Assembly: GCA_036172245.1 (NCBI GenBank)
Contig: JAYWIR010000051.1
Location: 992,001 to 1,022,386, forward strand
Reading direction: 5' to 3'
Length of the DNA: 30,386 bases
DNA from: Raillietiella orientalis
Lineage: Eukaryota
This document shows positions 3,417 through 30,386 of this stretch, in pieces. Every line of letters begins with the position of its first letter. Within the stretch, counting starts at the first letter, position 1. The translations under genes and the position numbers were made by a program. The notes under the pieces were generated by a model. It ran no database searches and was not told where the DNA came from. It worked only from the letters and a program-made list of their open reading frames with translations.

Positions 3417-3830
3417 ATGGCAGCTGACTTGATCTCCGCAGTAACGGAGGCCAACGCACTACTCACGGCGCATGTGTTGCGGCGGGCGCAAAGATGGAAC
3501 TCCGTGGCGCCCCGACAGACGTCTCCCGGGTGTCGCGCGCAGGAACACCTGGACGAAAGCCGGTAGTCGCACCTCCCCAGCTCGTAGCGAGCGATGCATG
3601 CGAGAAAGGCCACCACCATCCGCCCCATAGAGCGCACACTGCGACCGATGTTGAGGACCGGTGCCAAACACCACTCGCGACTGCTTCTGCTTCGTGATCC
3701 CGGGGTTCCCCCTGCCGTGCCTTACAGCCTATACGTACCTGCAGTGTTTGCCATTTGCGCAGCAAGCGCGCACATCCAGAGGCGTGGCGCGCATAGACAC
3801 AAACTGCATTCTCATCACTCCTACGCATCG
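3417..3830 (+). pseudogene. Possible highly decayed 3' end of a related LINE ORF2
   Basis: ARKATT...PGVPPAVPYSLYVPAVFAICAASAHIQRR weakly parallels AVKAVT...GTGVVPLYNPMVLTTLALFITAIVIRR in the intact ORF2. Similarity judged by eye only. Confidence 0.3.
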
Positions 3831-6800
3831 ATGACGTCAGCCCCCGTCCCCCTTCGTCGTCCGTTCTCCGATGTTTCACAGCTCTCGGGTCGGCGACCGC
3901 AGCGCCACTTCCCAGGGTTGCCCTTGTACGTTTGCGTGTCTTCCCAACGCCGGACCTGCCCGGCAGCAATTCTGTGGTCACGGGGTCGCAAATCGTTCGC
4001 CGTAATCGCGAAAGAGCACTCCCCAGTGGTAGCCTTGCGCATGCAGCCCGGGCTTCCATGCGTATCGGTCGCTTATCGCCTCTACCTGGCTTGTGTGCTC
4101 TGCGAGGGAAGCCCGAAGGAGAGAAAGAAGCACGCGCGCGCAATGCTCGCCGTATCCGCCGCTCTTGGTTCTTCTCATCCAGTGCTCAGAGTTCCTTTCA
4201 CGGATGTTTTGCTGCATTCATTTTCTGTGCCACATGTTATGTACTGGGACGAGTGATTTAGAATGATAGTTTCCACACGTTTTCCGCTTTACCAAAGCGC
4301 AGTCGAAATGCTGTTTATAGCTCGAATTGGCGTTGGGTCAAAGACAACTTTCCAGCTCGGTATCCTCGTGTCAGCCGTGCTGCCACTTCCTTTCGGAAAC
4401 TCAGGCAGTTGATCATGCCTCCACAATGCGAACATAGTTTACTTCCTTCGGTCAAGGTCAAGGACAAAGTTCACTGCGAACCTAGTAAAAATTCACGTCG
4501 CCCACATACGAAAAACTTGAAACTGGCGCTCCTGAGGGCGTGCTCTCACTTTTCCAACGGAGGAACGCCCTGTCTCCTCTTAACCCAGCGCGTGAACCGA
4601 GTTTGGAACGGAGTTTCGGTTCATGCTTTTTTGCAAAATCTACCAAATCCCGACTCTCCCTTCGGGAAAGCCTCGCTCTGAGGAACCACCTTGCAAGGAC
4701 CTCCTGCACGTAAAAAAAGTTATCTGATTCACTCAACCATGACTCAGCTCTTCGGTGATGCATGAGCTGTTCATACAGCGTGCATCCGTGAGCTATGACT
4801 GCGCACGACTCCCTTACATCTCAGATGACTAAGAAATCCATATTCAAGTTCAGGTGCCTTTCCTGCCAGTTATCCTGGACTCCAAATTGTCTAGGAACGT
4901 GTCTTCCCATATAACCAGGAAAGTTCTCGTTCTTCAACAAGCGGGAGTTTCATTGTTTTTTTTTCTGACGATTTTCGGTTTTAGCTTTCGGCGACTGGCG
5001 ACCTATTTTTACCTTGGACTTCGTTTCAAGTTACAGCAGGCCAATTGAGCTCATTTAGAGTCTCAGATGCACTGCTTCGTCTCAGCGATTTTTTTAATTC
5101 GTATCTAAGAAAGCCTCGACAACCGTCACCTTGACGAGAAAGATCTCTTTTGTCTGTAACGGTTTGCATCATTTGTTAAGGTTTGCACTCACCGGGAGCT
5201 GCAGAGAACAAGGTTTCGGATGGTCCCGTAGCCGACCACTGGTATCGACGCAACTCCGATGCGAAACGTGACAAAGAAGTTCTTCCTCGGTTTCCATACC
5301 AAGATGCTTCTGTGGCGTTGTTGTTTCAATCGCTGATGGAACGCCGAAATTGATGGTGTGCAGTTTATTTTGCTGTGTGGATGTGCAAAGGTGCAAACCC
5401 AATGGGCTTCCGAAGAATCCCATGAACCAGAGCAAGAGAACAGACGACATCACAAAGGCAGCACATCTGAGATCTCTCGCATTCAAAGGCAACACTTTGA
5501 TAAGATGCAGGTACAAAGCTAACAGGCAAGACGCAGGCAATCTCATTTAAAGGTCAAAGCCTGGCGAAGATCCTCCTCCATCGAAACAAACAGATGAAAA
5601 GGTCTTTCGCCTGAAATCGAGCAAAACGGCTCTTCAAACGCCCTAGGAAAATCGTTCTGAACGTCCTATGGGACTCCTGAGATACGAAAGATCTCTGTGG
5701 ATCCTCAAAGATACAGTTTTCCCACTGTTGGCACCTGCAGTCTTGCTGCCAAGGTTTTCCCATTTATTTTATTTTTATTTTTTTATCTCTTTCGGGGATG
5801 AATAACTCGGAACCAAATGGCGGGTTTCCTGTCCTTCATGGAGGTTAAGAATTCGCGAGGAAGGCCCTCAAAAAAATGCTGCTTCGTCACGAGCAGGAAC
5901 GGAAGCCCAGCTCGAGTTTTCCTCGAAGGCCACTGCTTTAGTCTGGCTTCTCATCGGTACACACAGCTAGACGGGGGAGCCCACTGCTTGCATCTGGAGC
6001 GGACATCTGGATGTACCAGCAAACGCTCCTTCCTTCCTAGTGCTACGGGTACGCACTGGGAGGGGAAAACACACCAAGCTGAAGCACACACACCCAGTCT
6101 GCAAGCAGTCTCAGGAGATGCTTTCGTGGTGAACAGGAAGCCGCCGCGTTAGTGAACCCAAAGCCATCGGCATCAAGGCGGGGGAATGGGAAGGGAGTGA
6201 CCTTCGGAGGCTTTGCTCTCATCTCTTGATACTTCGGCGTATGTCGATTATCGGTTTTGTTCTCCTTGGAGCATTGGATCCGCGTGCGTCTTCGTCTCGG
6301 TTCGTGATCCGGACAACCGCTTTCCGATCTCCATGCTTTGCTACGCGTCGTCCAGAGCGCAGCTTCCCTTGCCAACAACCAGTGATGGCTGCTGTACAAG
6401 ACGAAGCTTCCGTGGAAAGTTACGTCCAATGCGAACTCATCCTGGCCAGATACCAGTCGATTAGCTAAGTGTGTTGATACAGTGCAGTGCAACTGATGGC
6501 CAATGTAATTTATTTATTTTTTACGTGGACACCTGTAATCTGAACCCGATGGTACGAGCGCGCTGCGGATGGAGATCGTTCCTAAATCGGCCCCTTTTCC
6601 TGTGTGCGATCACTTGGTGCAAAATCAAGGATTCTGTCGGGTCATGGATTCCTGGATTCCTCTCTGCAGCTTCCAGCATCCTTCCAGATTTTTTTCTTCT
6701 TTTCTTTCCGTTTTTTTTTTTTAGGGGTTCAATTATCTAAGGGGAGGTTCGTCCCTCGTGAGGGTGCAGTAGCTGCTAGGCAACGCCGCTGCATGGCTCC

Positions 6801-9800
6801 TGCACTGTCATCCGTCTGGCTTGCGCGCTGTCACGCACCCGAGGTTCTCACATGAAACCGGGATGGGAGTCCGGAGGGGAGGGACTTCCCACTTGCTGGG
6901 AAGGACCCCGAAAGTCCCAGCCCTGATTCCCGGCTGATAGTCGACGGCGCACGCGGCCATGGAGGTGGACGCGTTCCACTAGCGCACACCCCCTTTTTGT
7001 CCCCATTCCATCTTGCGGGGGACTCGAAACCCAGGCGCGTCGATCCTTACGGAGATGATCCGAACCCGCGACGCGCGCAGATTCAGCGTGCTGGTGACGT
7101 CACGTGCAGTCCCCCAAAGTGCTGGTGACCCCTCGAAGAGAAGAAGAGAGAAGCACGACTGCCCATTTTGTTGTGCTCTCCAGGAACGCAGACTTAGAAA
7201 CACGCCAACACATACACACGACATATAGGATTTCCTCTGGCTCCTGGAATTGGTAATGCGAGCAGAAGAGCTTGCAGGTGCGCGCACTGCTGTCAAGCAA
7301 AGAGCTTTCTCTTTGCTTCAGAGGATGTCTACATCCTCTGCAGCGAATTCTCGGAAACAGAGCAGTCGTCAAGGAAGAGATCATGGAGGAAATGGGAAAG
7401 CACAGGGCCGGAGCGCCGGATGGAGAAAGCACGGGGGAGACAGACAGGCCAGGGACGCGGACCTGCGAAGCCTCGCCGGTCAAATCGGGGACGGATGTCC
7501 TCGAGTCCCGAAGGCAAACACCGGGAGGTGTTTCCGTGCGTCCCAGACAGGAAAAGCTGGGTGAAGGGAGTACGTGCCCTTGACTGCTGATGTCTGTAGG
7601 GAGATAGAAACGGGAGTCAGGGCACCCTACGCCTCCCACTGGTTCACTACGAGAGCACTGCTGCGGAGGGACGGTAGCTAGCGAGAGGGGGCATACTGCT
7701 GACACCTCCTCCTTAGCATCTGCTGGCGGAAGAAGTCCTTTTGAGAAGCCGACTTCTGCGTTCGCAGCATAGCAACCAATCCTCATGTCCGACGGGCAGC
7801 GTAACGACACGGCGCTCCGCTGAACGGAGCTGGGCCGACTGTCTCCCCAAGCATGGAGCGCGCGTTCACTCCGGAGCGTCCATTCAACCAGTGCGAGACA
7901 CGCAGAGCTGGACAGACGTCCGGCTGAGGGCGCGCGGGGGATGCAAGGAGGAGCGAGCACGAAGAGAACGTGGTAGGGAGGGGCGGGAAAGTTAACAGAT
8001 GACCGCGACCCGCGTCCGCCCCGTAGGCGGTGCTCAGGCCAGCGGAAGGTTCTCTTGGGAGTTCGCACGCGGCAGATTGGTTCCTCCCTCGATTGCCGTG
8101 GAGGCGAGGGGGTGGCGGGCCTTTTTTTCTTGCGCCCGGTGGAGACGTCGTTCCACTGAGCGCCACCCTCTCTCCAGGCGTGCTGTTCGGACACAACTCA
8201 GTACCACAAGAGGACCAACATGGAGAAAGCCCACGCGCAATGAGGTAACGCCCCTGTCTCCCTAAGCACATGAGGGCGAACGCAACCTTCACCGTGGAAA
8301 AGATGCTGCTGCCCAAAAGTAGGAACAGAAGGAAGTCTCGAAGTTCCTCCTTGGAAAGAGACGCGCCGCAAGTGCCGAGCGTCAGAACGTGTTCCGGGCT
8401 GTTCCTGAATGCCTCTCGGAACCTCGGATCAACAACACGCCGGGTTCACCAGGAGTTGACCTGGAAAGACCACGAGATGCAGTAGTGAAAGAGATTCGCA
8501 GGAAAACCAAGCAAAAAAAAAAAAAAAAAGAAGGCCTCCCAATTAAAAAGAAACGAATGGGAAGTCTGCACGTGTATCGAGAAGAAGCCTATCCTACAGA
8601 TCTGAGGCAGATGTGGATCCGCTTTGAAAAGGGTGGAAAGGGCTACCGTCAAGGACGCCCACCATCTGGCAGCAAACGCCGGAGCGTAGATGAAAAGATG
8701 AAAAAGTGAGAAGACCAGAAAAAAAAAAAATTAAATGCCACAGCCTGCATGGAGCGGCAGTAGGAATCATCCAAGTAAGGCTCTTTGCAAAGAGGAGGTC
8801 ATAGGAGCATTCTATCGCAAATACGAAATGATTTGTAGAGACCATAGGGGAAGTGAATATCTGTTGAAAATAGGTAGGTTCCCTCTACGAGTTCGCTTTC
8901 CTCTCCTGCCGCAGCCCAATAAAATGGTTCACAGCGGATTACCTTTTCGAGGACGAAGGAGACGTTTTTGGCGCCGGTGAGGTTACAGTCCAATTGGCGA
9001 ATTTAGTGACATCAGACACTGCACGAAACACTTGGAACAAGTGCGCGCAGGACACGTGCGCAGTATCTGTTTTCTAGGGGTAGGTGCTCATTTCCGGGTG
9101 CCACTTTGTCACCCATGTCTTCGTGCCAAAAGATTTCCAGAATGATGAGTACCGAGTTTCTTGGAAACTTATTAAAACCCACTCATCAATTTGTACGTGG
9201 ACCTGGATTCAGAGATGGTGTCCTTACACGAAGAACAGGGCAATCTAAAGAACTGAAAACCTGAATACGGCGATGGAGAAGCAGAATATACGCACGGAAG
9301 ATCTAGGCATACCTCTTCATCACTCTCTGCCTCGGTGTGTTAAAGAGGAAACCACTGCATGTCTCCACAAAGGAAAATGAGTTAACTAAGTGTAGGCCCC
9401 ACCTGAAAGATGAATGACTTTACAGAGAACTTTCCCAGAGCAGCAAGATCATCCAGAAACCAGCAATGATCGAGGAATGCCTCCTGCATCCCTCGTTTCG
9501 TGTAATCCTTCTGCCTCTTTTATGGAAGCTGCACAAATCAACACAAGATCGAAAATACCTACGTAATTCAGGCAGAAGTATGCATTGGTTCTCATCGTCT
9601 GCCTTTCCAAAAAAAAAAAACAATGAACGTTTTTTGGCAGTTATCAGTTAGCAAAAAATTTCACAGCATTCACAGCTTTTTGGAGAGCAGATGCCGAGTG
9701 ATGAGCAGTCGACGGAAAGACGACGCTCCAAGGTGGAAAGAAGCAGGATGCTGGAGACCAATTCCAAATGAGTCTTGAGAATCAGATGCAAAAGCTTCGG

Positions 9801-12480: not shown

Positions 12481-13758
12481 ATGTCTGCATTCTGCTGCCA
12501 ATCTGATCACAAAGACCTTTCCAAAGAGACTCGTGTTGGAAAGATCATTGAAGAGCATACAGTGTATCAGAAACAAAGAGCTCGACTGACATTGTCCCCA
12601 AAGAAACCTGTGCCACCCTATTTTTCATTGTTTAAAGATACAGAATTATCTGTAACTTTCAGTCAAGCTCCCCCAAAAGCCAGTTCCCTTTGGCTGCCTA
12701 AAGCTACAACTGTACAAGTGCATCCTGATTTCATAAACTACACACTGTATTTCAAATTAACTCAAGCAGTGGCAAAGTTTGCACCTGCAGTTTATTTTTT
12801 TGGCATGAGTGATGTTCTCCTCTCTCTTATAATGCTGCTTCCTGCTGCATGTACTGTGTTGCTAGCTATGGTATTTTTGCATACATGCTGTAACAGCTTG
12901 GCTGTGCTATCTTTATCTGCTGTAAGAAGTCAGTTGCATATGGTAGCAACACCCCCACAGCCAAGTGCCTATCACAAACAGAGTGATTTGGTAAACCAGT
13001 TATGTGCCTCTACTCACCAGTTGGAAAAAAAGAAGAAACGTAGGAGGAAAGCAAAAGCTCCAATGAAAAACACTCAGGAAGATGCAAAAGTTGAGCCAGT
13101 GAAAGTATTTTCATCCCTGTGCGATAGTGAACTTGATGATAAAGACAGATCCAGTCATCTGCAGGATGCCAATAGCATCCCATCTTCTTGCATTCCTGCT
13201 TCACCATGTGACTTTTTGGAAGAGCCTTCGTGGACTTTGGCTAAAAAGCCTCATCGCAAAAAAAGCAGTGATCCAGCTCGTTCTGTTTGCAGGTCTGGAA
13301 AACGAGCTTTCTCAAGCACACCATTCATTGTCACAAAAGCTCGCTCTAGTCGCCAGTCAGAATCTGCACGACCTCCCCTTTCCCATTTGCATTGTGGTTT
13401 GCAAAAGTCTGAGAGAACTAGCAACTTTTGCTCAAGTAGTTTCTCAGTTAACAAGTGTCATAGACCATTGTTTGTTCCCCAGAGACGCTCCTATTCCTCT
13501 GTTGTAGCTCATGGGTCTTCTGCCAATTTCACTTGTGAAACCTGTGTGCTACTCACAAATGGGGACTCTGAGAATCCAGTCACTTTGGGGCTGGGATCAA
13601 ATTGGAACAGTGGTGCTAGCAGCTTGTGTTGCTTCAAGTATTCCAAGAGTATTGACAAAATTTGGAGCCAAGGTCATGATAGCTGGCTGTTTGCATGCAC
13701 CTGGTCTCCGTGTATCTGCAAATATCCCGAAGACTCTGTCAATCAGGAGGAATTAAGG
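12481..13758 (+). CDS. Probable large coding exon of a host gene of unknown function (hydrophobic segment, KKKKRRRK cluster, Ser-rich region)
   Basis: 476-codon open frame in AT-rich DNA. It is preceded by acceptor-like TTTTAG ending at 12480 and contains donor AGG/GTAAGT at 13759. No family recognised. Confidence 0.6.
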
Positions 13759-14256
13759 GTAAGTTTTCTGAGGAAATTTTCGACTGTTGATGCAGTGTAT
13801 TTATTAGGAAGTGTTGGGTTTCGATCCCTTGCTATTTCTGAACAGCTGATTGGATGGATGTGCTGGTGGGGGAATCCCCAGTTGTACTTATTGATCTCTG
13901 ATTTGCAATAAACATGTGTACAAAGATTGCAAACGTTTCTGTCTGAATTACATTGAGAACGTTCTGCAGTGTGTAACTGAGGTGCCGTTGTCGCATTTTC
14001 TGCCTTTCTGAGCGACATGCAGTTTTTTCTCTCTCCTTTTTTTTTTTTAATAACGGATTTTTCCAGGATACAGAAAAAAAGTTACTGGAACTGATGATTC
14101 TTCGTGCCTATGAAATTCTGAACGTATTTTCTCATCCTATTGTTTTTTTCGCTTTGAGGAGGATGGGAAAAAGGGAAATGGAGTTTGAAGGTGCACAAAT
14201 GGTGGGTTTCATGGCGCGAATTTCGACGTTTCCTGCGGTGCTCCGAGTCTCCGTTT

Positions 14257-14634: not shown

Positions 14635-15289
14635 ACGGAGGTTCAATCCAGTGTTCGAAACAGTACATGAAGAATGTCGTTGGCATTGAACTTGGGATGT
14701 GCAGCGGGTAAGTGGATGGAAGCATCGAGTTCCCGTACCCGTGGTTCTCGTGAGCGACGTCCTTTCCTGCGCATTCACCCGGTGCGTTCACCCTGAGCAC
14801 AAAGCTCGGAGATTACTGCATACCTTGCTATGAATCCGCAAGGTAAATCGCCCCCTTTTTGAAATTTTTGGGGCGCAACCACTCAGAATCCTTCCTCCCC
14901 TTCCCTGAGCAGTAAAGCCAGGAGCGATCATCAAGATGATCAGTCTTCAGAAGAATGAAGCAGCAGTTTCTTTCTCAGAAGAGGAAGGTATACTTTGGTC
15001 ATCATGGTTGTGCTTTTCCTCGGAAGAGCCTCGTGATAATCATATCAAAATCTTTCTCAGTCCGACGTGCGGTGGGGCAATCTTATCGTTTGCAGTCAAT
15101 CAAACAAACAATCGAGGAGACAGGGAAGATTGGTAAGCCTTTCGGGAATGTACTTTGGTTTGTCTCTATTCATGTCTTCACCGGGCAAAGATTCGTTTTT
15201 TGCATACTCGAGGACGAAGGATCAGGAAGCAAAGAGTAGGGAGGGCAATTGAGGGATGGGTCGTTTAGTACACACTACTTTGTGCCTCC

Positions 15290-18200
15290 TGGTGTCATGT
15301 CAGGATCCCCTGTCTGTCAGCTTTCTCAATCTTTCGAAGGACGTGGCTGAAAATCCACATGCTGACACCCTAGCCCCTCGAAGCTTTGTCTTCCGGATGA
15401 GGATGTTCGAACGAAAATGCCAAAATGCTCCTTAGAGTGGATTGTAAGGGGGAGGAAACAGCCCCCTCTCCTTAGATTCCTCGGAGGGTCCCACATCGAA
15501 ATGGATTTTGGAAGTTCATCGCCTGCTTCGCCACCCTCCTCCACTCTTTGGAGAGGATTCTGCAGATGTACAGGTGGAGTGGGGCTTCTAAGATCCCTCA
15601 CGCGGGACAGGCTCCACCGTTCGGGTTTTCAGTCCAATGTCGGAGCCTTGTGCCGCACAGGATCCCTCCGTGGAACACCAGGAGGCAGTCCCGAATCTCT
15701 GGAGGCAGTTCTGACCTCCAAAGGACGGTCCCTATGGCTATTGGATTTAGGACCGGTTTCCTGAACCTTTCCCACACCTTTGATATCACGTCCTCGGCAT
15801 TGCTTTTCGACTTGAAGAGACATCCAGTCCTCGGGGTTCCACTCTGAGCCAATGCGAGTCCTGGTCTTGGCAGAGTCCGCGGGTCCCGTTAGTCATCCAT
15901 CCTTGCGGCTGGCGCTTGTAATGCAACACTTTGCTTTCGTGGATGTTGGTGGCGAGGTGCTCTCATTCTGCGATGGTGACTGTTTTTATGCTCTAGAGCA
16001 ATTTTTGTGTGGCAGAGGACACGCTGAGGAATCGTGAACGACCAACTCTTTGCCCCGAGGTTCCCTGCTTTTCTGGACGATCCCCGAATTCTTTCTTCGT
16101 GCCAGTTCTTGTTTCCTTCTCGGTGTGGGGTCTGTCAGGTACCACTGTCCTGTTGATCCGTGCAAGGGGCGCACCAGGCCCTCGGTCCCGTTGATACTCG
16201 ACGCTCCTTAGGCTCGATGGGACGCATATGACCATTGGTAATAGGCGCCGACGTGCCTGATGATGTGCCGCAGGTCCCGGAGAACTGGGCAACGTGCGCC
16301 ATGACTGTACCTCCTTCCTGGAGCGGTCAGCACACATACGCTTACTCTCGGCATCCGGTCACTGCTTGCCAGGTGTCGCCGGATGTAAGCCAGGTTCGGT
16401 CACCTTCTCCGGCATGCTGAGGAAGACCGTCCCGAGCGAGAACTTGGGTGTGAACACCGGTTTCATTGTCCTTCTCCCTCAGGGAGAAGTTCGCTCGCGC
16501 CTTGGTGGTCCAATGTTTGATTTCTGACTCTTTCCAGGATGCCCTTCAATTTGAGTCCTCAGAGTGCCAGTGGTCTTTTGGCGTCTCCGATGCGGACTCC
16601 CAAGTGTTTTGCCACGGCTGCTGTCCCGATTCCGTGGGATCTCAGGGGGGTGACGTTTGCTGTCCGGTTTTCATGGCCAAGGCGATTGTCCAGAAACGGC
16701 CTTCCATCCTGCTCGTCTGCCATGACACGAAGAGCAGATCGTCGGCGTAGGCCAGGTGGTTGACTCTCTCCCTTTCCGGGGCGAGTCCCTGCGGTGGACT
16801 CGCCGCCGTCGCGTAGGGCGACACCTGGTCCATGTTCAGAACGAAGAGCACGGGGCTCCAGGTTTCTCCATGTCGGACTCCCCATTCGAACATCCGGTGA
16901 TGCCAAGGCCGTTGATCCTGACGGCGAATTTTGCTTACCGCGTGAGTGGTCAAGGATTCTTATTCGGAAAACCCGTCTTCCCGAGGATCCTGAGCAGCGT
17001 GACGTGATCCCTTCCGATTCGAAGGCCTTCGCGATGCCGATGAGGAGTGCAGCATCAGGTCGCTTCCCGGGATGCGCCTGGATCCTAGCAGGGCTTGGGC
17101 GCGCTTGACGTTCTCCCATGCGTCCTGCTTGGAACGGCGCACGTCCGCGTAGGAAAGACCACAGTCCCGAGGCACTTCTTCAGTCCGTCTGCCCGGATCT
17201 TGGCCATCCACCTCGCATCCTAGATCGACCTCCACTGGTTGGTGGACCAAAAATTGCCACCTCCACCCTTCGGGAGTTACCGCAACCACACCCTGCTACG
17301 ATGCAAGGAGGCGGGAAGTCTACCTCGATCCTCCCTCGGACCCGGATGAGCAGCTGCCGGAAGAATCGCTGGTAGGCCAGCAGGTGCCGCTGACAGTGCG
17401 TTACGGGCGCGTTGTCGGAACCTGCCGTCACGTCCCTGCAAGGCTCCGGGAACGCCGCTTTGAACTCCTCATCGTCCGTAACTTCCGCTTCGATCTCTGA
17501 GGACTGTCGTGCGGCCAGTAGTTTCACCGCACGAAGACGCCTCGGTTCCGAATTCCCTGCCCGGAACAGCCGGGAGAGGCAGTGGCAGAAAGCGCCCACC
17601 CTCTTGTTCCGACGTTCGGCAGTCGGTGTCTCGATATTAGATGTGAAGGATGTCTGTGGATTGGTCTTGCTCCTCCCATATTTCATTTACGTCCTTCTTC
17701 CCTCTTTTGTCCGGGTATCTACTCTGGGGCTCTTCCCAATACGCGAAGTGAAAGGCGTCGCGTCGGTGGATCCCCGGGCAGGCTTCTTCTCGAAGTGTCC
17801 TGTCGTCGAATCGCATGTTTGAGAAGAGGTGGTGGACTGCATGTTCAAGGCGATCTCAGTCGTCTACGGAGTGGATGGTGCTTCTGGCAAGGATTGTCTT
17901 CACGACGCGCTGGTATTGCGGGTAACATTCGCATCAGACTAGCATGCATATGAGTGTTGGCCTTGGCTACTGGTGCTCCCTCCTGGGATTTCACCAGTGC
18001 AACTGGAACCTCAACAGGGGGTAGCCCGAGAAGTCGGGGAGACCAACTGCGTCTACGGGCTCCCGGAGCCCCCTGGATGCGGTTTGCGACGGCCCGTGAG
18101 TGCGGGATGTAGTCGATGTGTGTGAAGCTCGAACCTATCCACGCGATGTCGAGTGCTTCCGCCACGTGGCAGTGAATGCTGAACGTCTAAGGCAAGCCGC

Positions 18201-18988
18201 CGGTTGAGGTTAATGTTGAGGTCGCCCATCTCAGCAGGATGAGACGTCCTTCGGTGCCGCCTTGCTCTTGAGAAGAGTTCCCAAGACCAGCGAGAAGGCT
18301 TCCCTCTTCTCATGAAGCCGTATACCTTCACCGCAAGGAAGACTTCCAGGATGGCCACCACCTCGCGGTTGGGCTCTCCCTGGCTGACGTCGATGGTCGC
18401 TCGCAGGTGCTGCGCCCACGTGGTGTCGCTGCCTGTTCCGCCAGACAGGTGGACGGTCGTCCCCACGATCTCGGAGATGCCGTGGACTACAACCGTCTTT
18501 CGGTTGAGGAGAAGCCCATTGTCGAGATCGTCGATCACCTCCGAACTGTCCGTGTAGATGGAGAATCCCACGACGAACGGCATGATCTCCTTGATACACT
18601 GAAAATCAATTCCTTTGCTGTCGATCCCGAGGTAGATCTCCCTCAATGCTCTGTCCGTCCGCGTCCTGTTCGTCATTACAAAGGTGACCGAGGTCACGTC
18701 CGGGCCGAAATTGCTTAGGAACCGGAACCCCTTTCGATTTGTCAGCAGACGATGCAGCCGCGTACGTGCACCAATGCCCTCGTCGGCGAAGACGCGGATG
18801 CGGTCACGTGCGACAATGCCACGGGTGCCTTGCTGTCGTCGTCGTCGCACGCGAAACTTCCATCCGTCCGCAGGCCGCATCCGTACTCCCCACCGTCTCC
18901 ACGACTACCGGTCTCCGCAGGGACACGCAACCGGAACACCATGCGTCCGCAGTTCAGACAACACAGCTTCTGCCTTTAGATTACGACT
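15290..18988 (-). mobile_element. Decayed, internally deleted relative of the intact element, directly downstream of U5
   Basis: ORF1-like LREIYLGIDSKGIDFQCIKEIMPFVVGFSIYTD...TTVHLSG matches VKDIYIALHQKNVDMDVVQAVIPCGNGFTIYTS...TTVYLKG. EN remnants VKVYG, GDLN, IDYI. RT GVRHGETWSPVLF...HLAYADDLLF and KHLGVRIG. C-terminal SELPPEIRDCLLVFHGGILCGTRLRHWT matches SDLPPDTQDDLLLFFNGGILSGSRLRHWT. Many frameshifts; boundaries approximate. Confidence 0.9.
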
Positions 18989-19110
18989 TGCCCTAACAGG
19001 GCACTCAAAAAATTCGGAAAACGCTCTTTTCGACGCTCCCGCCCACGGATTTCTTTAGTAAAAGGCGAAAGAAATGCGCGCTTAGAGCGGGAGCCCGAGC
19101 ACGTTCCGAT
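18989..19110 (-). ncRNA. U5: U5 spliceosomal snRNA (~116-122 nt; 5' end between 19104 and 19111)
   Basis: Minus strand carries invariant loop I in ATTTCTTT-CGCCTTTTACT-AAAGAAAT, the conserved CCG internal loop, stem GCTCCCGCTC/GGGCGGGAGC, basal stem GTGCTC/GAGCGT, Sm site AATTTTTTGA and 3' hairpin TGCCCT[GTT]AGGGCA. Confidence 0.96.
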
Positions 19111-19133
19111 TGCATCCGATGTTGGCCTGAAAG

Positions 19134-19156
19134 TACAGTTAAGGTCCCCACGTAGT
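19134..19156 (-). promoter_or_regulatory. Candidate snRNA proximal promoter element upstream of U5
   Basis: ACTACGTGGGGACCTTAACTGTA starts about -46 to -52 from U5 and resembles the U1 upstream motif. Confidence 0.4.
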
Positions 19157-20138: not shown

Positions 20139-20299
20139 CGAGCTAGACGTGCAGTGGCGTGACTTCACACGTCCACAGCTTGCAGCAACACTTGCACATT
20201 CGTTTAAAACAGCATCTCGCACTGTTGTCCACCGTGATGGCTTCCTCTCGGTGTTCTGTCGTAACGCTGTTCTCTTGGGGATGGTGGACAGATGCTTCG

Positions 20300-23011
20300 G
20301 TGCTGCTTTGAGATCACCAGGCCATCTGCAGTTCCTGTAGGTAAGCATACGTAAGTGCTCATGCAGGCATCCTTCGGCAGTTGAGGGTATCTTCAGCCGC
20401 TTTTACAAGGTCTTGTTCGACGGCATGTTTCTCCGCCTTCGCACCCGGATGCTGCTGATGAAGAAGGCAAAGATGGTTTCCAACATCGGGTTGTACGCCG
20501 GAACTTCCAACTCGGACATTCCCGTGGAAGATCACGCATTCAGGACGCCCTCTGGCAAAACGTTCTTCATTCATCCACTGTCCAGTCGTTGGCCAGTGGC
20601 AGACAGATGAGGTAGCACGTGGAGTTTGGTTTCGCCACGCGCTTAGGAGCTTCATGCTGACTTCTCCTTGTGAGGTGTCGAAGCCGAGCACCGCACAAGA
20701 GATCTCCGGCGTAGGAAAGCAGGAAGCCATCTAGCGTGTTCGGTGGTGAGTCGGCTGTCCAGATCGCGGTGACCGCCGATCGCCCTGCAGATTTATCTGC
20801 GTCGTGAGGAAACGTCGGGTTCCCGCTGACAGTACGGGTCTCCCTTGCCGCGTCCGGTCTTCGCATCCTCTCTCTTCACTTGGCTCTCTGGAACACCATT
20901 CACTTCCTTTCCAAAGTTTTCCAGAGCTCCCTCGTCCCGCAGGCCACTCTGCGTCCCATTTTCGTGATCCACTGGAAGAGCCACATCTGGTGGCGGTTTT
21001 CGCTGGTTGCGAGCGGTTCGGAATGCGCGCACGATCTTCAGATGGGGTCTCTGATGAATCACTGTTCCCTGCGGCAAATACACGAAGCGGAATATCTCCG
21101 GAGGCGATCTTTCGTCCCAGAGTCTCTTGGCTTATGGGCTCTATTTTCAGCTGGTGGATGCTGAGCAGCTGCATTTTCCGTGAATTCGAGGGGTCGACCG
21201 AATACCACTTGTCATCCTTGGTCACTGGGGCTACCATCATGCCTCCAGACTCTTACAGCACCTTGGCTCGGGCTATGCAAGCAGCGTAGGGACGCCCATC
21301 TCAAGATCTTAGCGGCTTCGATTAGTTGACGAGCGTCGGAGAGCTGGGCTTCCCACTCTGTCGGTTTCATCCACACGCACGTACTCCGCCAAGTATCGCG
21401 GGAAGCACAGATTCTCCAGAATTCCGAGGAATACTCCCGTGGTCCACGGAGTGGAGCACCTTCACCATGTCGGTGAAGCCCAGCATGCGGTTGTCGCCGA
21501 GGTACCGACTCAAGCCGATCGTTGCCTGGGGCGCACTCGACGTTGTCAGGCATGCGCGTATCCGCGAGGCAGAATCGACGATGGAATTGCCTTTTCCATG
21601 TGGATGGCCCGGATCTTCGCCAGCCACTTGGGACGTCCGTGCTCAAGGTGGAGATTTGCCGCAACTGCGATACTTTCGCAAGGCCCCCGTTTGTTGAGCA
21701 ACAGCCTCATCATGCTTGCATGGGACGACGCTGGAGGCTACCGTCCTCTCCTGATCCCATTCGTCTGAGCTCGTGGAACGGACGGGGACAAACGTGTGGG
21801 TGCCGTCGAACGTGGCGCACGCACGCAACACCGTCACCTGCCGCCACGCCCTAGCGCAGTCCCGCCAACAAGCCCTTGATTTCCTTGACCGTTGATATCT
21901 TGCTCCGGGATATGCTGTGGTCTCGGCCAAGCCATCTCTGCGGATATCGGAGGGCGACTTGCAGCTACATAAGGAGCAGAAAGGAAATGGAAGCGGGAGA
22001 CGTCATGCTCTTGGAACGCCCCGCGGTACCTGCGGTGCCCTCCGACATGTACCAAAGCGCATTCTGGGATTCCATGGAGAAGACGCCTGTGGAGACGTTC
22101 TTGCCCTCCATCAGGCCAGCGTCCCCATTCACGCGGTGGAAAACGTACCGTCACTCGTACTGATCCCAGTACCGCGAGAATAAGCGGTCAAAATCGCGCG
22201 GACTCCATGCACAAACTCCTAGAAGCCGGTACAACAGCTCAGCTACAGGCGGTATCACACATGCACATCTTGCGAGGGCTCGCCGTGGGCGATGACACCT
22301 AGTATACGGGCATCAGAAAGAAGCTTGGAGCATGCTCCTGCAACTCCTGCAAAGACGTCTTCCATATGACTGCGCAATGTAACCTGTTTGCAATCTCGTA
22401 TAGGGAGAAAAACTCACACATTCTGAGGCGTTGTACAACGGCGTATCCCGGAAAAGTAGAACGCCGTAGTCGCTAGACCTCAAAGAACGCGAAATCGCTT
22501 CCCATTCAGCACCATACCACTCTCGATGAGTGTCTCTTGCAGCTCTGCGAACGAGGTATATAGCGAAAACACAATTGATGAAGATAGGATCGCCATTAAT
22601 TTTTCAAAGTCCACATTTCGCTTGAGGAAAAAGACATACATGTCACGCAAATTGGAGGCACCTAACATCCCCATTAAAAAGGTGATATCAAAGTCAAAAT
22701 TCATAAGAGATTTGTCCAACCGCTCTATTTCCAAACTTTCGGGCCTAGAAAACGCCACATTCCTAGCAACTGGAATGGCAGCCGCCACTGCAGCATAAGA
22801 TAGCGACAGCGTTGCCAGTAACGGCGTAGCTCCCACCTTGGAGGAGCGAATTTGGAAAAATAACATAAGCGTAGGGGTCGTCCTAGATCGTCCATCCACT
22901 GGTCGGTTGAAATTGACAACACTTAAGCTTCCGCAAATACAGGCGGAGTCCTTCACCCAAAAGGTGCAAAACAAAAAATTCGCCATGGTATCGCTGCATT
23001 CAGGCAAGTAT
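20300..23011 (-). mobile_element. Second decayed, internally deleted relative of the intact element
   Basis: ORF1-like SYAAVAA and LRDMYVFFLKRNVDF...FSLYTS...GMVLNGKRFR (22480-23022). ORF2-like YWDQYE*RYVF (vs YWPQYESRYVF), ATIGLSRYLGDNRMLGFTDMVK..VDH, KWYSVDPSNSRKMQLLSIHQLKIEP, GDLLCGARLRHLT and PAYNPMLETIFAFFISSI. Boundaries approximate. Confidence 0.87.
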
Positions 23012-24079: not shown

Positions 24080-24242
24080 ATACTTACCTGGCTTCGAGGC
24101 GATCTTGGTCACCATGGAGATCCCTCCAGAGTGAGGCTCGATCATTGCACTGCGATTGGGCTGACCTCTGCGATAACCCCAAACGTGGGTTACTCGGAAG
24201 CATAATTTTTAGGCTGGGAGACTGCGTTCGCGCGGACTCCTG
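24080..24242 (+). ncRNA. U1: U1 spliceosomal snRNA, full length (~163 nt)
   Basis: Starts ATACTTACCTGG. Helix H GCTTC/GAAGC. SL1 GAGG-C-GATCTT[GGTCACCATG]GAGATC-CCTC. SL2 has the U1A loop ATTGCAC closed by GCTCGATC/GATTGGGC. SL3 TAACCC[CAAACGT]GGGTTA. Sm site ATAATTTTTAG. SL4 GGGAGACTGCG-TTCG-CGCGGACTCCT. Order and spacing match canonical U1. Confidence 0.97.
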
Positions 24243-24380: not shown

Positions 24381-26003
24381 ATGGAGGCGGTGGACGTCTC
24401 CACATGTGCGAGGCCGGTAGAGGCGCTGGCGGCGAGATCGGCGGAAGGGCCGAACGCAGCGTGCGCGGGAGCGGCGTCCCCTGCAACGCTCGTTGCGACG
24501 CCCGTATCGATCCGCCCTGCGTCGTACGCGGCGGCAGCAGCGGCGGCGCCACCTGGCGGTTGGAATGCGGCGGCGGTGAAATCGGTCGGTTTTCCGGGAG
24601 TGCCTCCGGCAAAACCGAGGATCCCTGTCCAACCAACACGGTACATCCTGGACGACGAGGATGAGCCTATACTCGTCCTGCCGGCAGATGTCAAGCCGGT
24701 AGTTTTTAACTGCGGTCCCCTTCGTTTGGCAAACGTGAAGGACATTTACATCGCCCTTCATCAGAAAAACGTCGATATGGACGTAGTTCAGGCCGTGATT
24801 CCGTGTGGGAACGGTTTCACCATTTACACGTCGTGCGATCCCCTCATCGAGGCACTTTGCGATCACGGCTTGACCATCAGTGGGAAGCTATTCCGTGGAG
24901 TAGGAGAAACCTCCACGACGACAGTGTACCTGAAAGGGGTTGACTTTCACACCAGCAAGAAAGTCATCAAGAACTTCCTGTCGCAGTACGGGGAAGTCCA
25001 CCATCTGGAGATACGGAACCAGTTTGGTGAGATCTTCTCCGGAGAAGGATTTGCCAAGATGCGCCTGTACGAAAATGCGCAGATGCCTGGCGTGGCTTAC
25101 ATCGACGCGTATTCGCAATCGGTGATGTTCAAATACAGGCAACAACCTGTATTTTGCGCTGGCTGCAAGACGTTTGGGCACCGCATCGGAGCATGCCCTA
25201 GGGCTCAATGTCACCGATGCGGCCAGCGAGGACACTTCTTCCGGGAGTGCAACCAGCCCATAAAGTGCTACTTCTGCGGCTTGTCTGGTCATTCGAAGAA
25301 GGAATGCAGGCGATACGCCGCATGGAGGGACGCACAGGGGCTGCCACCATTAACGGTGGAACCGCAAGTGCAAACGGAAGAGGAGAAGAAGACTCCTTCG
25401 GCCGAGGTGACTGCCAGGAAGGCGGCAGAACTCACCGAAGGGAAAAAGAAGCCCGCAAAGGGGAAGAGAAAGACAGCACCACAACCTTCTGTGGAAGCGC
25501 CGGCGGAAGAGGCCGAGCCAGCCAAGGAAGCGGTGGAAATACAAGCTGCAGAGTTGGCGGAAGTTGCCAACGTAACAGCAGAAGTGCAAGAAGTCGCGAA
25601 AATCGTGCAGGAAGCAGTAACCAGAGAAGCGAAGGCAGAAGCTCTGGAACGCATCAGCCGGGTGGAGGCCTCCATCAACGAGCGCGTTCCAGACGCGGCC
25701 AAACGCTTCCAATTGGAAGAAAGGATGCTGGAAGTGAAACAGCGCTTCGCCAGAGGGGAGCTTGAGGATCTGCAATATGCAGTCCCTCGAAGCGTCCTTA
25801 ATGAAACGAGGCACTCAATCGCAGACAGCACCGACTACGTCGGGTCAGAAAGCGACGTAGGAGATCAGCGAGACGCAAAGGGGGGACGACAACGTCTCCC
25901 AAGAAGAAGAAGAGCAAGAGGAAGAGCAGGTCCTCCAACTAGTCCCCTATGGCCACCTTCCTGTCGACTGTCAGGAGCATCAACATCACCTCCTGGAACG
26001 TGA
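24381..26003 (+). CDS. Retrotransposon ORF1, gag-like nucleic-acid-binding protein (~540 aa) with three CCHC zinc knuckles
   Basis: First ATG after U1 is at 24381, in frame with ORF 24261..26003. Knuckles CAGCKTFGHRIGAC, CHRCGQRGHFFREC and CYFCGLSGHSKKEC. SYAAAA motif near the N-terminus, a TVYLKGV RRM-like region and an E/A/K-rich tail. Confidence 0.93.
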   Translation: MEAVDVSTCARPVEALAARSAEGPNAACAGAASPATLVATPVSIRPASYAAAAAAAPPGGWNAAAVKSVGFPGVPPAKPRIPVQPTRYILDDEDEPILVLPADVKPVVFNCGPLRLANVKDIYIALHQKNVDMDVVQAVIPCGNGFTIYTSCDPLIEALCDHGLTISGKLFRGVGETSTTTVYLKGVDFHTSKKVIKNFLSQYGEVHHLEIRNQFGEIFSGEGFAKMRLYENAQMPGVAYIDAYSQSVMFKYRQQPVFCAGCKTFGHRIGACPRAQCHRCGQRGHFFRECNQPIKCYFCGLSGHSKKECRRYAAWRDAQGLPPLTVEPQVQTEEEKKTPSAEVTARKAAELTEGKKKPAKGKRKTAPQPSVEAPAEEAEPAKEAVEIQAAELAEVANVTAEVQEVAKIVQEAVTREAKAEALERISRVEASINERVPDAAKRFQLEERMLEVKQRFARGELEDLQYAVPRSVLNETRHSIADSTDYVGSESDVGDQRDAKGGRQRLPRRRRARGRAGPPTSPLWPPSCRLSGASTSPPGT

Positions 26004-29000
26004 ATGGATTGTGGAACCCGGAGAAGAGACGGATGGTCACGCGGACCATCGAGCGTGACCACATCGTGTGCCTTCAGGAAACCCACGAGCTCGAACATCA
26101 GACCATCTTGGAGCTGGAACGACGACTGGACGCCCAGCTGTTCGTGAGCCCGGGCCAGAAAAGGACCAAAAGCGTGGCGATGCTCGTGAAGAACGAGATC
26201 GCACACACCATCCTGGAAACCTTTTCACCTTGGCCCGGCCGAATCGTCGCAGTGAGGATGTCCTGGTCCGGAAACGTTCACCTGTACTTGGTGAACGTGT
26301 ACGGGCCACACCGTGGAAAACATCGCTGCGCGGAGGCCGTGCAGTCTCTGCTTCGCAGCAAAGCTTCGGCAAAGGACATCGTGATCGTCGTGGGTGACTT
26401 CAACATGCTGGACAAGATAACGCAGTCCAAGGATGCGCGGGGAAGAACGGCGTATCGGCGGCTGTCGGACGAGTTCGGCCTGCAATGGCTGTCTGCCGCG
26501 AGCAAGCCGATCGACCACGTCCTCTTCAGCGAAGACATCGCGACTCGTGTGCAAGGCTTCCGGGAGTCTCCATCCGTACTCTCGGATCATCCCCTGCTAC
26601 GATTCACGCTGAAAACAGAGAACCCCCGAAGAAAGGAAGGCGCGCGGGCTGCATTAGTATGCATGCCCGCATGGTTCCAGACGCATCCCTGTCACCAGGA
26701 ATTGATCGAGGCGATCCTGCGCAGCACCACCATTCGCAGGGTCGCCGACTGGGACAGGTTGAAGCGAACCATCCATCTGTTCAGTAATATGCAATACGGC
26801 GACAGGAAGATGAGGACGGAAGCGTACCGCGAGCTGGAACAGCAGCAAGATCGCTCGCTCTCGAAGTACTGGCCCCAGTACGAGAGCCGGTACGTCTTCA
26901 AGACGGTCAAAGGAGAAGTTGGAGTGCTGGAAAGGAGGAACATCGCCAGCGAAGTTTTCTCCATCCGGCACGCAGATGAAGTCAGGCACACGTCCGAAGG
27001 AATCGCGGAGGCGTTCCACCATCATTACGCCTCGCACTTCCGACGAAGACTTCTGTGCCCGACAGAACAAGAGAACATTCTGCGGTACCTGCATCCGCGT
27101 GTAAGGAAAGAACACCAGGAAAAGATGGAAGCCGAGATCTCCCCAGAGGAAATCAAGATCGCTTTCGCTGGACTGCGCAAGGATGTGGCGGCAGGTCCCG
27201 ATAGTGTTCCCATCTCGCACTATCAGCGGTACCTGCACGCCTACCTTCGCTTGTTCCACGAACTGACAAACGCCATCCAGGAAGAAGGAAGACTTCCAGC
27301 ATCGTTCCACGAGGGAAGGATGAAACTGCTGCCGAAGGGAGGCGACCTGATGGAAGTCACCCAATGGCGGCCGATCACCATCCTGAACACGGATGCCAAG
27401 TGGCTGGCGAAGGTCTGGGCCAACCGCTTAAGAATGGCGATGCCATCCGTCGTGTCTGCTACGCAGACATGCGCGGTGCCCGGACGAAGCATGACTGCGA
27501 ACGTGAAGTGCGCCCTGGCCACCATCGGTTATTGCCGATACGTGGGCGAAGACCTGGTGCTTGGGCTCACGGATATGGAGAAGGCGTTCGACACCGTGGA
27601 CCACTCGATGCTGCTGAAGATCTTGAGGAAACTGGGCTTCCCAAGCATCTTCATGCATTACCTGGAATGGACCCTGGCGGAGCAAATCGTGAAGATCAGG
27701 ATCAACGGACTTGAGACGGCAGCAATTCGGATGGAAAGGGGTGTCCGCCAAGGTGACGCCCTGAGCCCGATGCTGTTCGTGCTGTACATGGAGGCGGTGT
27801 CCGCGATTATAGATCGGGGCAGCCGCCTCCAAGGAATAAAAATCGACAGCCAGCAGCTGACACACCTTGCGTATGCGGACGATCTGCTGTTCTTCCTGAA
27901 GGACGAACGTGATCAAGAAGCATTCCTAGGTGTTGTCAAGCAGATGGAAAATGGACTAGGACTCAAGATCAACTGCCAGAAGAGCCACCTGCTGCCAATC
28001 GGGATCATGGACCTCTCAGTACTTCAAGAGGCCGGATTCCGAGCGGCTGACACCGTCAAGTACCTGGGTATCCGCCTCGGCGAAGAGACTGCGTCTCGCT
28101 GCCTGTGGCAGGAGATCCTGGGTAAGGTCACCGACGAAGCCACCAAGTACACCAGAGTCGACTTCAACATGAAGCGGAGGGCTGCCTTGTGGAACGGAGT
28201 GCTCCTTCCCAAGGTTCTCTACGGAGCAGCCTTCTGCCGAATGGACAAGAAAACAAAGGAAGAACTGGAAAGGCTACAAAGAAAGATCCTCTGGCGGGAG
28301 TATAGACCCAGGGTACGGCTGAAACTTCTGTGCCGCCCACGCGAACACGGTGGGACCGGGATGAAGCTGCTGCAACACTCCGTGGAATGCATGGATGCGC
28401 GGCAGCTCCTGGATCTCACCAGAAGTTGGGAAGACTGGCCCTATGCAGCGCACCGGGCGTACTCGAAGCTGTTGAACGGCTCGAGAGGCCTGATGTCAGC
28501 GCTCATAGGTGCCACAGGACAATGGATCAACATCGACCCTACGTGGAAGCGGAAGCAGGCACTGGTGAGAACCCAAGGGTTCAAAATCGTGCCTCGCAGC
28601 TCCGAGATATGGGACGAAGAACTGGCCATGGTGATACCTCACTTGATCCCGATGCCAAGGGAGACAGTGAACTGGTTGAACCAAAGGCCTAGATTGAACA
28701 TCCGACGGTGCGAGCAGTTCGCTACCAGTGCCAGCCGGCACCAACTGCGACTGCATCGCCTGACCACGACCTTGAGGGGTGGTTTCAATCATCGCACCCG
28801 GGAACTTTGGAAAGAGCAGCCGCAGGAGTCGTGGCTGCTGATGACCAAAGATAACATCAGGGTGGAAACGGCGCGAAAACACCAAGACCTGGATGCCCTC
28901 AACGCAGCCTCGTGCCGTTACGGCCCAGCACATGCCAATGTGGTGGCCGTCGGGGCTGCACTGATGAGGAGCGACCTACCTCCGGACACTCAGGACGACC

Positions 29001-29476: not shown

Positions 29477-29594
29477 CCCTAGGAACACATACAGACCAAT
29501 TGTGAAAGTGAAATGTATCACGGTCATACAGACATTAAAAGTTTTAATGAATGTGAATTAGGATGATTGGAGTGAAAGGAATTTTGTTGGTTGC

Positions 29595-29628
29595 AATAAA
29601 TTCACCCCACCGCTTGTCGGACTTGGGG
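29595..29628 (+). other. Element 3' terminus: AATAAA followed by a GC hairpin, with no poly(A) tail
   Basis: AATAAA at 29595-29600, then CCCC-A-CCG[CTTGT]CGG-ACTT-GGGG at 29605-29628. U1 sequence resumes at 29632. Confidence 0.6.
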
Positions 29629-29631
29629 ACA

Positions 29632-29772
29632 ATCTTGGTCACCATGGAGATCCCTCCAGAGTGAGGCTCGATCATTGCACTGCGATTGGGCTGACCTCTG
29701 CGATAACCCCAAACGTGGGTTACTCGGAAGCATAATTTTTAGGCTGGGAGACTGCGTTCGCGCGGACTCCTG
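29632..29772 (+). pseudogene. U1: 5'-truncated U1 snRNA (nt 23-163)
   Basis: Identical by eye to 24102-24242 but lacks ATACTTACCTGGCTTCGAGGCG, which includes the 5' splice-site-pairing arm. Confidence 0.93.
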
Positions 29773-30386
29773 CGAATTTCTTCAAAGTAAGTGGTTTTTT
29801 TCGAGTGCTGTGTGGAAAGTGGTGCGACAGAAAGGGACCGTGGACTTTGCCCTACCACCCAGTGTGCGGAGGAGGACGTTGCCCCACGGGATCGGCCCCA
29901 GTGGGGGAAAATGGAGGCGATGGACGTCTCCACATGTGGGAGGCCGGTAGAGGCGCTGGCGGCGACATCGGCGGAAGGGCCGAACGCAGCGTGCGCGGGA
30001 GCGGCGTCCCCTGCAACGCTCGTTGCGACGCCCGTATCGATCCGCCCTGCGTCGTACGCGGCGGCAGCAGCGGCGGCGCCACCTGGCGGTTGGAATGCGG
30101 CGGCGGTGAAATCGGTCGGTTTTCCGGGAGTGCCTCCGGCAAAACCGAGGATCCCTGTCCAACCAACAAGGTACATCCTGGACGACGAGGATGAGCCTAT
30201 ACTCGTCTGCCGGCGTCAATAATGATGGTTTTTAACCCTACGGTCCCCTTCGTTTGCTGGCAAACGTGAAGGACATTTACATCGCCGCCCTTCATCGAAG
30301 AAAAGCGTCCCGATATGGACGTAGTTCGGGCCGTGATTCGATGTGGGAACGGTTTCACCATTTACACGTCGTGCGATCCCCTCATC
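29632..30386 (+). mobile_element. Second tandem copy of the element (U1 head, 5' UTR, start of ORF1), cut off by the window end
   Basis: Near-identical to 24102 onward, with a few substitutions up to about 30200. Several indels after that break ORF1. Confidence 0.92.

Follow-up and report, generated by a model that had tools for sequence, protein, structure and literature searches.

A retrotransposon family of Raillietiella orientalis whose copies seem to bear complete small nuclear RNAs as 5′ heads

Small-RNA genes and retrotransposons at the locus

We analysed a stretch of 30,386 nucleotides (nt) from the eukaryote Raillietiella orientalis (assembly GCA_036172245.1, contig JAYWIR010000051.1, positions 992,001 to 1,022,386 of the forward strand), in which related retrotransposons without long terminal repeats (non-LTR elements), or long interspersed nuclear elements (LINEs), lie directly behind genes for small nuclear RNAs (snRNAs). 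This whole stretch is called the window, and positions are counted from its first letter. Four matches at the gathering level of Rfam were present in it, to U1, a second U1, U5 and the small nucleolar RNA (snoRNA) U3, and all of U1, U5 and U3 lie within 15 kb of one another. A relaxed Rfam scan of the whole window (E up to 5) yielded no ribozyme and no further small RNA. The retrotransposons that accompany these genes are a decayed element behind U5 (element A), on which this study centres, an intact element behind U1 (E1), the start of its tandem copy (E2), and another decayed relative (element B). The features needed to follow the argument are given below (ORF, open reading frame; UTR, untranslated region).

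18988..19102, minus strand: U5 snRNA, complete with loop I, Sm site and 3′ hairpin, head of element A; Rfam RF00020, 81.0 bits
18966..18987, minus strand: snRNA 3′ flank with the 3′-box-like motif AATCTAAAG, which starts at 18982
15052..18965, minus strand: decayed element A (5′ UTR, ORF1 remnant, ORF2 remnants, 3′ UTR), delineated by tblastn, tblastx and frame translations
18904-18053, minus strand: ORF1 remnant of element A, an open frame
18165-15532, minus strand: ORF2 remnants of element A
19103..19142, minus strand: putative 5′ piece of the U3 snoRNA (about nt 1-40), severed from the body, with the GAC/A′ motif GACTRTACTTTCAGG
14878..15048, minus strand: body of the U3 snoRNA, with the hinge and boxes C′, B, C and D; 54.3 bits with Rfam RF00012 (gathering score 34)
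24080..24242, plus strand: complete U1 snRNA, head of E1; Rfam RF00003, 132.9 bits
24243..29631, plus strand: intact element E1 (3′-box-like flank, 5′ UTR, ORF1, ORF2, 3′ UTR)
29632..29772, plus strand: U1 nt 23-163, the 5′-truncated head of E2, identical to the first U1
29773..30386, plus strand: first part of tandem copy E2, cut off by the end of the window

Element A is a decayed sister of the U1-headed element

With 81.0 bits (gathering score 40, E 1.4e-12), the U5 match covered positions 1-117 of the 117 in the model, which places it in RF00020. Element A lies directly 3′ of this complete U5, on the same strand. When E1 ORF1 was used as a tblastn query, its residues 159-226 matched element A at 18646-18440 with 33% identity; E1 ORF2 matched six segments of element A (residues 174-1071, at 18165-15532) with 25-48% identity and shifting frames. 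By tblastx, element A and E1 were 40.6% identical over 670 aligned amino acids. Element A is about 1.4 kb shorter than the intact copy (3.9 kb versus 5.4 kb), lacks the C-terminus of ORF1 and most of the endonuclease, and has shifted frames. These results support element A as a diverged and decayed sister of the U1-headed element, headed by a complete U5; the snRNA head is U1 for the intact subfamily and U5 for the decayed sister. A preliminary description of this DNA had claimed just such a complete U5 immediately 5′ of, and on the same strand as, a decayed element homologous in ORF1 and ORF2, and Rfam, tblastn and tblastx bear it out.

The make-up of the family can be read from E1. Its ORF1 is an open frame of 580 codons, from the ATG at 24381 to 26003, with three CCHC knuckles. 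Its ORF2 (25949-29476, 1177 codons) encodes an apurinic/apyrimidinic-type endonuclease (APE), then a reverse transcriptase (RT), then a C-terminal CCHC motif; the Pfam matches are Exo_endo_phos (E 1.4e-17) and RVT_1 (E 3.6e-30). The CCHC motifs are visible in the sequence, and the Pfam zinc-knuckle matches fall below the cut-offs. E1 can thus be assigned, on its predicted proteins, to the L1/Tx1-like non-LTR retrotransposons of the APE type, and the U5-linked copy matches its ORFs at the 25-48% identity given above.

The two elements also resemble each other in how they are spaced from their snRNAs. Element A encodes a TYAAA motif (18767-18753) that lies 221 nt beyond the end of U5; in E1, SYAAA (24522-24536) lies 280 nt beyond the end of U1, so the interval of about 220-280 nt in the preliminary description agrees with the measured values. 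In element A a stop precedes the motif, whose frame is shifted relative to the conserved ORF1 core. The ancestral start codon of element A is likely to be the ATG at 18863 (MEVS), 125 nt past the U5 end, and that of E1 is likely to be the one at 24381 (MEAV), 139 nt past the U1 end. Two diverged relatives that each follow a complete Sm-class snRNA of the same strand at 125-139 nt are, by informal estimate, far from a chance arrangement in a 30 kb window.

U5 and element A appear to have entered a U3 gene as one piece

On the minus strand the order is U3 nt 1 to about 40 (19142-19103), U5 (19102-18988), element A with its flank (18987 to about 15052), and the rest of U3 (15048-14878). The two U3 pieces were scored separately, the body by Rfam and the upstream piece by its motif. 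The body aligned without about 36 model positions of the 5′ domain and starts within about 4 nt of the 3′ terminus of element A, an end that was itself placed to within about 4 nt. The motif GACTRTACTTTCAGG corresponds to the conserved GAC/A′ box region at the 5′ end of U3 in the alignment in supplementary file 1 of PMC2784804. It had a single match in the window (both strands), at 19140-19126 of the minus strand with 1 mismatch, where 0.04 were expected in the whole window. The match lies on the strand of the U3 body and ends 23 nt upstream of the U5 start. Together, the 40 nt of the upstream piece and the roughly 45 nt before box C′ make up the usual length of the U3 5′ domain in the PMC2784804 alignment. 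No target-site duplication (TSD) was seen at the U3 site.

Because a U3 5′ motif precedes U5 and the U3 body follows right after the element, the simplest reading is that U5 and element A were inserted into the U3 gene together; they appear to have arrived as one piece. U5 would so be cargo and not target at this locus, and the probable insertion site of element A lies at about nt 40 of U3. The preliminary description had offered snRNA genes as either target or promoter of these elements. U5 as the target does not fit here, where the gene that appears split is U3, while an upstream snRNA transcription unit fits.

Two unrelated events might also have produced this order, namely a U5 retropseudogene inserted into U3 and a later chance insertion of the element behind it, or the junctions might be assembly artefacts. 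Retropseudogenes of snRNAs are common in some genomes, as described in the parts of PMC4476161 consulted, and repeats can be misjoined in assemblies. Against this stands the parallel with the U1-headed element, which extends to start-codon spacing and flank motif. A search of public sequencing runs with words sampled from the window returned one run, coded X1 and perhaps of DNA, which held 0.14 of the words; no RNA run was listed. A 189 nt contig of this run spans the junction between the 3′ end of element A and U3 (14929-15117) without a difference, although X1 is possibly the source of the assembly and so is not independent. We regard coincidence or artefact as highly improbable.

A likeness to the linkage of U3 and U5 in Euglena was considered and rejected, for the genes are convergent in Euglena and in tandem orientation here, which is a different arrangement.

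A shared 3′ terminus and the nature of the second U1

The following features bear on the 3′ ends of the elements and on the second U1.

15059..15075, minus strand: conserved 3′-terminal motif CCACCGCACGTCGGACT of element A
29607..29623, plus strand: conserved 3′-terminal motif of E1, within what Rfam takes as nt 1-22 of the second U1
20157-20141, minus strand: 3′-terminal motif of element B
20139..22686, minus strand: decayed element B, a third diverged relative, 5′-truncated or deleted
29610-29772, plus strand: second U1 as scored by Rfam (105.2 bits, model 1-166)

The pattern CCACYGCNNGTCNRRCT matched three times in the window, each time at an element 3′ end, against 0.07 expected, and none of 100 shuffles reached three matches. 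E1, A and B therefore share a defined, conserved 3′ terminus without poly(A). An AATAAA hexamer is present at 29595-29600 of the plus strand, about 31 nt before the E1 3′ terminus, yet no copy has a poly(A) tail. A conserved 3′-terminal hairpin was also considered and rejected: RNAalifold returned no pairs, and a structure drawn by hand showed no covariation, with 62% of cells paired, no better than shuffles. The matches of element B to the E1 ORFs by tblastn span 22686 to 20448. By tblastx, B was 40.9% identical to E1 over 748 amino acids, and A was 34.9% identical to B over 126, so that E1, A and B can be taken, on their sequences, as three diverged sublineages. No snRNA head was found on element B, and a relaxed Rfam scan upstream of it detected nothing.

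E1 and E2 form a tandem with a period of 5530 nt, in which blastn paired E1 positions 23-769 with 29632-30386. The first 575 aligned nt contain 5 substitutions, none of them in the aligned U1 part, and U1 nt 23-163 belong to the repeated unit. A patch of small indels at 30205-30330 of E2 (plus strand), aligned to E1 24678-24800, breaks ORF1; the rest is about 99% identical. Rfam counts the terminal motif of E1 among nt 1-22 of the second U1, and the deviant start of that match, 22 nt long, is thus element sequence. Read from this alignment, the second U1 consists of the 3′ terminus of E1 fused to U1 nt 23-163, and is not a variant gene. This is an annotation trap, in which the covariance model took an element 3′ terminus plus U1 nt 23-163 for a full "variant" U1.

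The tandem has two readings. In one, a U1-headed RNA would have integrated at nt 22/23 of the U1 that heads an older copy. After the nick at that site, the cDNA of the incoming head would pair with the U1 of the target, so that a seamless, intact U1 is restored on the upstream side, and downstream there remains a truncated U1 (nt 23-163). The other reading makes the tandem a head-to-tail dimer, formed by a template jump or by re-insertion at one site. Only the former implies U1 as a target, and nt 22/23 of U1 is therefore a possible target of E1.

Relatives outside the window

The database proteins nearest to the elements of the window share about 25% identity with them. A metagenome scan with ORF2 alone gave 168 pattern matches, none of which was confirmed. 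When an alignment of ORF2 was used, 391 relatives were confirmed and the best 80 loci were kept; 40 of these were scanned by Rfam, and all 80 by blastn with the snRNAs found. The best 80 show 23-34% identity in the best segment. An snRNA lies beside the element, on the same strand, in 8 of the best 80 loci of 391.

Five of the eight are Keno-type insertions in U2. In L001, L002, L004 and L007 (both sides) and in L014 (5′ side), U2 nt 1 to about 29-41 is followed by the element, an A-run, and U2 from nt 38. Locus L020 has a complete U5 (2067-2187), then, 342 nt on, U5 nt 1-79 (2529-2607), and 25 nt further an intact element with ORF1 and ORF2 (2634-8235). A Sm-site-like AATTTTTGG and a hairpin occur 33 nt past the end of that element. 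A copy 98.6% identical to the L020 element, at L018, has other flanks and no U5. Locus L057 has a complete U2 upstream and a U1 downstream (72-263 and 6094-6146), with the 5′ boundary of the element somewhere in the 190 nt behind U2, and L065 has a U1 and an opposite-strand 5S ribosomal RNA gene downstream (5833-5996 and 6939-7057). Between L057 and L065 the roughly 70 nt before U1 show 88% conservation, the elements themselves being 66% alike. These elements form a distinct LINE family placed some 70 nt upstream of U1 genes, which looks specific for the spacer of snRNA/5S clusters. A complete snRNA joined to the element 5′ end, as in the window, was seen in none of the eight snRNA-flanked relatives, the boundary in L057 being ambiguous.

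In trees of the window's ORF2 with the metagenome relatives, all eight snRNA-flanked loci fell into one clade with a FastTree support of 94, and a reduced IQ-TREE run with 5 of the 8 loci gave the same starred clade a support of 97. The ORF2 of the window is a long branch outside this clade and is not reliably placed. Within the clade, the group of the U5-linked L020 nests among the Keno-like U2 insertions L001, L002, L004, L007 and L014, a position that would amount to a shift from U2 to U5 inside it. LINEs from this part of the tree thus commonly reside in snRNA genes, and association with U5 is not unique. The preliminary description had stated that no U5-associated non-LTR element was known; that statement is contradicted by L020 and by the legend of Fig. 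3 in PMC4494074, which lists U5 snRNA among Tx1 targets.

Loci of this kind bear on another explanation of the window, by which elements inserted among resident small-RNA genes, the downstream gene lost its 5′ part by deletion along with the spacer, and the upstream snRNA was never mobile. U1, U5 and U3 do lie within 15 kb of each other, snRNA genes adjoin or enclose the elements at L057 and L065, and the same history has been proposed, in the portion of PMC4640811 consulted, for Utopia elements in the U2 arrays of Phytophthora, which have the same layout of an intact gene upstream and a truncated one downstream. A deletion between a U5 and a U3 gene, however, would not yield a U3 5′ piece before U5 and a U3 body after the element. 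This explanation would further require that, in two diverged sublineages, the 5′ junction fell at the same position although the snRNA gene in front differs. We consider a resident cluster of this sort improbable.

The 3′ flank of the snRNAs and the origin of the heads

Behind each of the four Rfam matches, a 3′-box-like motif begins at the following positions.

24245, plus strand: behind U1
29775, plus strand: behind the truncated U1
18982, minus strand: behind U5
14866, minus strand: behind U3

The corresponding pattern, AAT[CT]N1-5AAAG, which was defined post hoc, has 16 matches on both strands of the window, and 4 of these begin at a distance of 3-12 nt from the 3′ ends of U1, the second U1, U5 and U3. 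The motif is a candidate 3′-end formation signal of the small-RNA genes transcribed by RNA polymerase II (Pol II) in this organism. Since it is also found behind U3, which has no element after it, it looks like a host 3′-end signal and not like element sequence. The heads seem to carry host 3′ flank, and such a flank favours read-through transcription (5′ transduction) over a jump of RT onto a mature snRNA. All three copies that have a 5′ end (E1, E2 and A) carry an snRNA head, and the fourth, B, is 5′-truncated.

The jump just mentioned is the substance of a further alternative, in which RT, on reaching the 5′ end of the element RNA, switches each time to the 3′ end of an abundant snRNA, so that the head is not inherited. 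The junctions do lie at or near the mature 3′ ends of U1 and U5, and a single series of jumps could have produced the tandem and the truncation of its U1 at nt 23. The joint arrival of U5 and the element in U3 would be explained equally well. Such switches are documented for L1 with U6, U5, U3, U1 and U2 in the sections consulted of PMC4476161 and PMC4494074, and for a fungal LINE (PMC2104539). Chimeras of this origin are, however, a small minority of L1 copies in what PMC4494074 reports in those sections, whereas here all three 5′-complete copies are headed. The U5 of the window is complete, in contrast to human U5/L1 chimeras, whose U5 is 3′-truncated at nt 83, 78 and 98 of 116 in the part of PMC4476161 consulted. 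Both heads are followed by the motif that also occurs in the 3′ flank of U3, and a mature snRNA would lack it. Both E copies, moreover, have the same head and the same junction. On balance we find repeated template switching a doubtful explanation.

The explanation that we favour, with moderate confidence, is an L1/Tx1-like lineage whose copies lie directly behind complete Sm-class snRNA genes, share a transcript with these genes and take them along as heads. Transcription would start at the start site of the snRNA, by its own promoter, and read through the 3′ box into the element. The whole RNA, made up of the snRNA, a short 3′ flank and the element, would then be reverse-transcribed at a new nick, with the snRNA carried as a 5′ head. 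The donor of the U5-headed copy would have lain behind a genuine U5 gene, and element A would be an old, dead insertion of a U5-headed unit in U3. Consistent with this, the anatomy is parallel in two relatives about 41% identical, each with a complete snRNA, a 3′-box-like motif and a start codon 125 or 139 nt on. The layout has a precedent in Phytophthora, where, in the portion of PMC4640811 consulted, Utopia copies have an intact U2 upstream and U2 from nt 39 downstream.

Several points weigh against this co-transcription model. The headed copies are only three, from two sublineages in one 30 kb window, and no relative exceeding about 27% identity turned up elsewhere, with database proteins at about 25% and metagenome loci at 23-34% in the best segment. 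The 5′ UTRs of element A and E1 are unalignable past the first 25 nt or so. In the 40 nt upstream piece of U3, box A is unrecognisable in the remaining 23 nt, and the piece by itself gave no match when the 121 nt before U5 were scanned with Rfam at relaxed settings. The dimer reading of the tandem belongs here as well, and the near-identity of E1 and E2, with those 5 substitutions in 575 nt, is compatible with either order of insertion. The flank pattern is the post hoc one described above, and its likeness to the vertebrate snRNA 3′ box is something we presume. The promoters of Pol II snRNA genes are located upstream, and a transduced head therefore takes no promoter to its new site.

A stronger form of the model would have the lineage make a complete Sm-class snRNA gene its 5′ module, with read-through from the snRNA promoter, a head that contains an Sm site, rebuilding of the gene on homologous insertion, and exchange of heads between sisters (U1 versus U5). 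The head could give the RNA an Sm site and perhaps cap hypermethylation and nuclear import or stability of the type known for small nuclear ribonucleoproteins. Homologous insertion would rebuild an intact gene upstream, and thereby the host would lose nothing and the element would regain a promoter. We think this full version unlikely.

Comparison with known systems

Retrotransposons resident in snRNA genes (Keno, Utopia) and short interspersed elements (SINEs) with snRNA-derived heads (SINEU) are already known. The literature searched shows Keno, Utopia, Dada, SINEU and snRNA/L1 chimeras; an autonomous LINE with an inherited head of complete U1 or U5 plus 3′ flank was not found in this search, which left out most subscription journals and Repbase Reports. 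The APE-type, U2-specific Keno of the Tx1 clade and the U5-labelled Tx1 families are likewise autonomous, with APE and RT and a C-terminal CCHC motif, as far as the sources consulted describe them, and Keno-type elements also reside in Pol II snRNA genes in the sense orientation. Keno-type copies split their target at one fixed site, whereas in the window a complete U5 or U1 with 3′ flank precedes the element and the gene that appears split is U3. The Keno-like U2 insertions of the metagenomes have an A-run, in contrast to the elements of the window, which are without poly(A).

Utopia of Phytophthora has an intact snRNA upstream and a 5′-truncated one (U2 from nt 39) downstream, which corresponds to U1, E1 and U1 nt 23-163 here. 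In the portion of PMC4640811 consulted, this layout is left unexplained or ascribed to deletion, and carriage of the upstream snRNA to other loci is not reported. The Utopia endonuclease is restriction-like (PD..D/ExK), unlike the APE type found here. SINEU elements, with U1- or U2-derived heads and mobilised by Tx1-type LINEs, likewise have an inherited snRNA-derived 5′ head, and their transcription is believed to rely on promoters upstream or in the flanks, according to the sections consulted of PMC4494074. They are short and non-autonomous with partial heads, whereas the element in the window is a full-length autonomous LINE with ORF1, ORF2 and a complete snRNA.

In the U6/L1, U5/L1 and U3/L1 chimeras an snRNA is likewise fused upstream of a LINE in one insertion. 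Those described in the part of PMC4476161 consulted are sporadic, mostly with a 5′-truncated L1, TSDs, poly(A) and a 3′-truncated U5. In the window, by contrast, the LINE 5′ end is present, U5 is complete, poly(A) is absent, no TSD was seen at the U3 site, and every 5′-complete copy is headed. Sequence upstream of L1 can also be carried along when transcription starts upstream, a 5′ transduction described in the part of PMC11838501 consulted. If read-through is true, a promoter-less LINE would draw on the Pol II transcription units of snRNA genes and leave them intact. Read-through would then also offer another account of the unexplained Utopia layout in oomycetes ("intact U2 upstream"), and a natural intermediate for the origin of snRNA-headed SINEs.

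Other features of the window

Exactly at the 3′ end of element B begins a repeat of about 240 nt, R1 (20138-19897, minus strand), of which a second copy, R2 (14634-14394, minus strand), lies 240 nt behind U3 and is 73% identical to R1 over 255 nt. No Rfam family matched the repeat, and in the relaxed scan only a chance-level match to a long non-coding RNA was obtained near R2. A search for the 5′ part of the repeat upstream of element B found only chance-level short matches. As a structured RNA, the repeat shows compensatory changes in 3 of 44 pairs, a count from two copies only. R1 is followed by CCAAAGTAAGG, like the 3′ flank of U1. The repeat may be an unrecognised small-RNA gene or another target. 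CAAYGCC was examined as a promoter motif common to the regions upstream of U1, U3 and R2, and was dropped, with 13 matches against 9.6 expected and unequal spacing.

Nine long open frames outside the elements, including 12481-13911 (plus strand) and 7100-8197 (minus strand), gave no Pfam match with E up to 0.01. Run X1 contains short, low-depth contigs that are exact at 14929-15117, 17777-17981, 22398-22600, 24820-25120 and 29349-29632, and these provide no informative joints or loose ends at the snRNA junctions. The RT region of E1 at 26160-28280 (plus strand) draws diverged contigs from X1, with a summed depth several-fold above that of the flanks. Related LINE families are probably more abundant in that data set.

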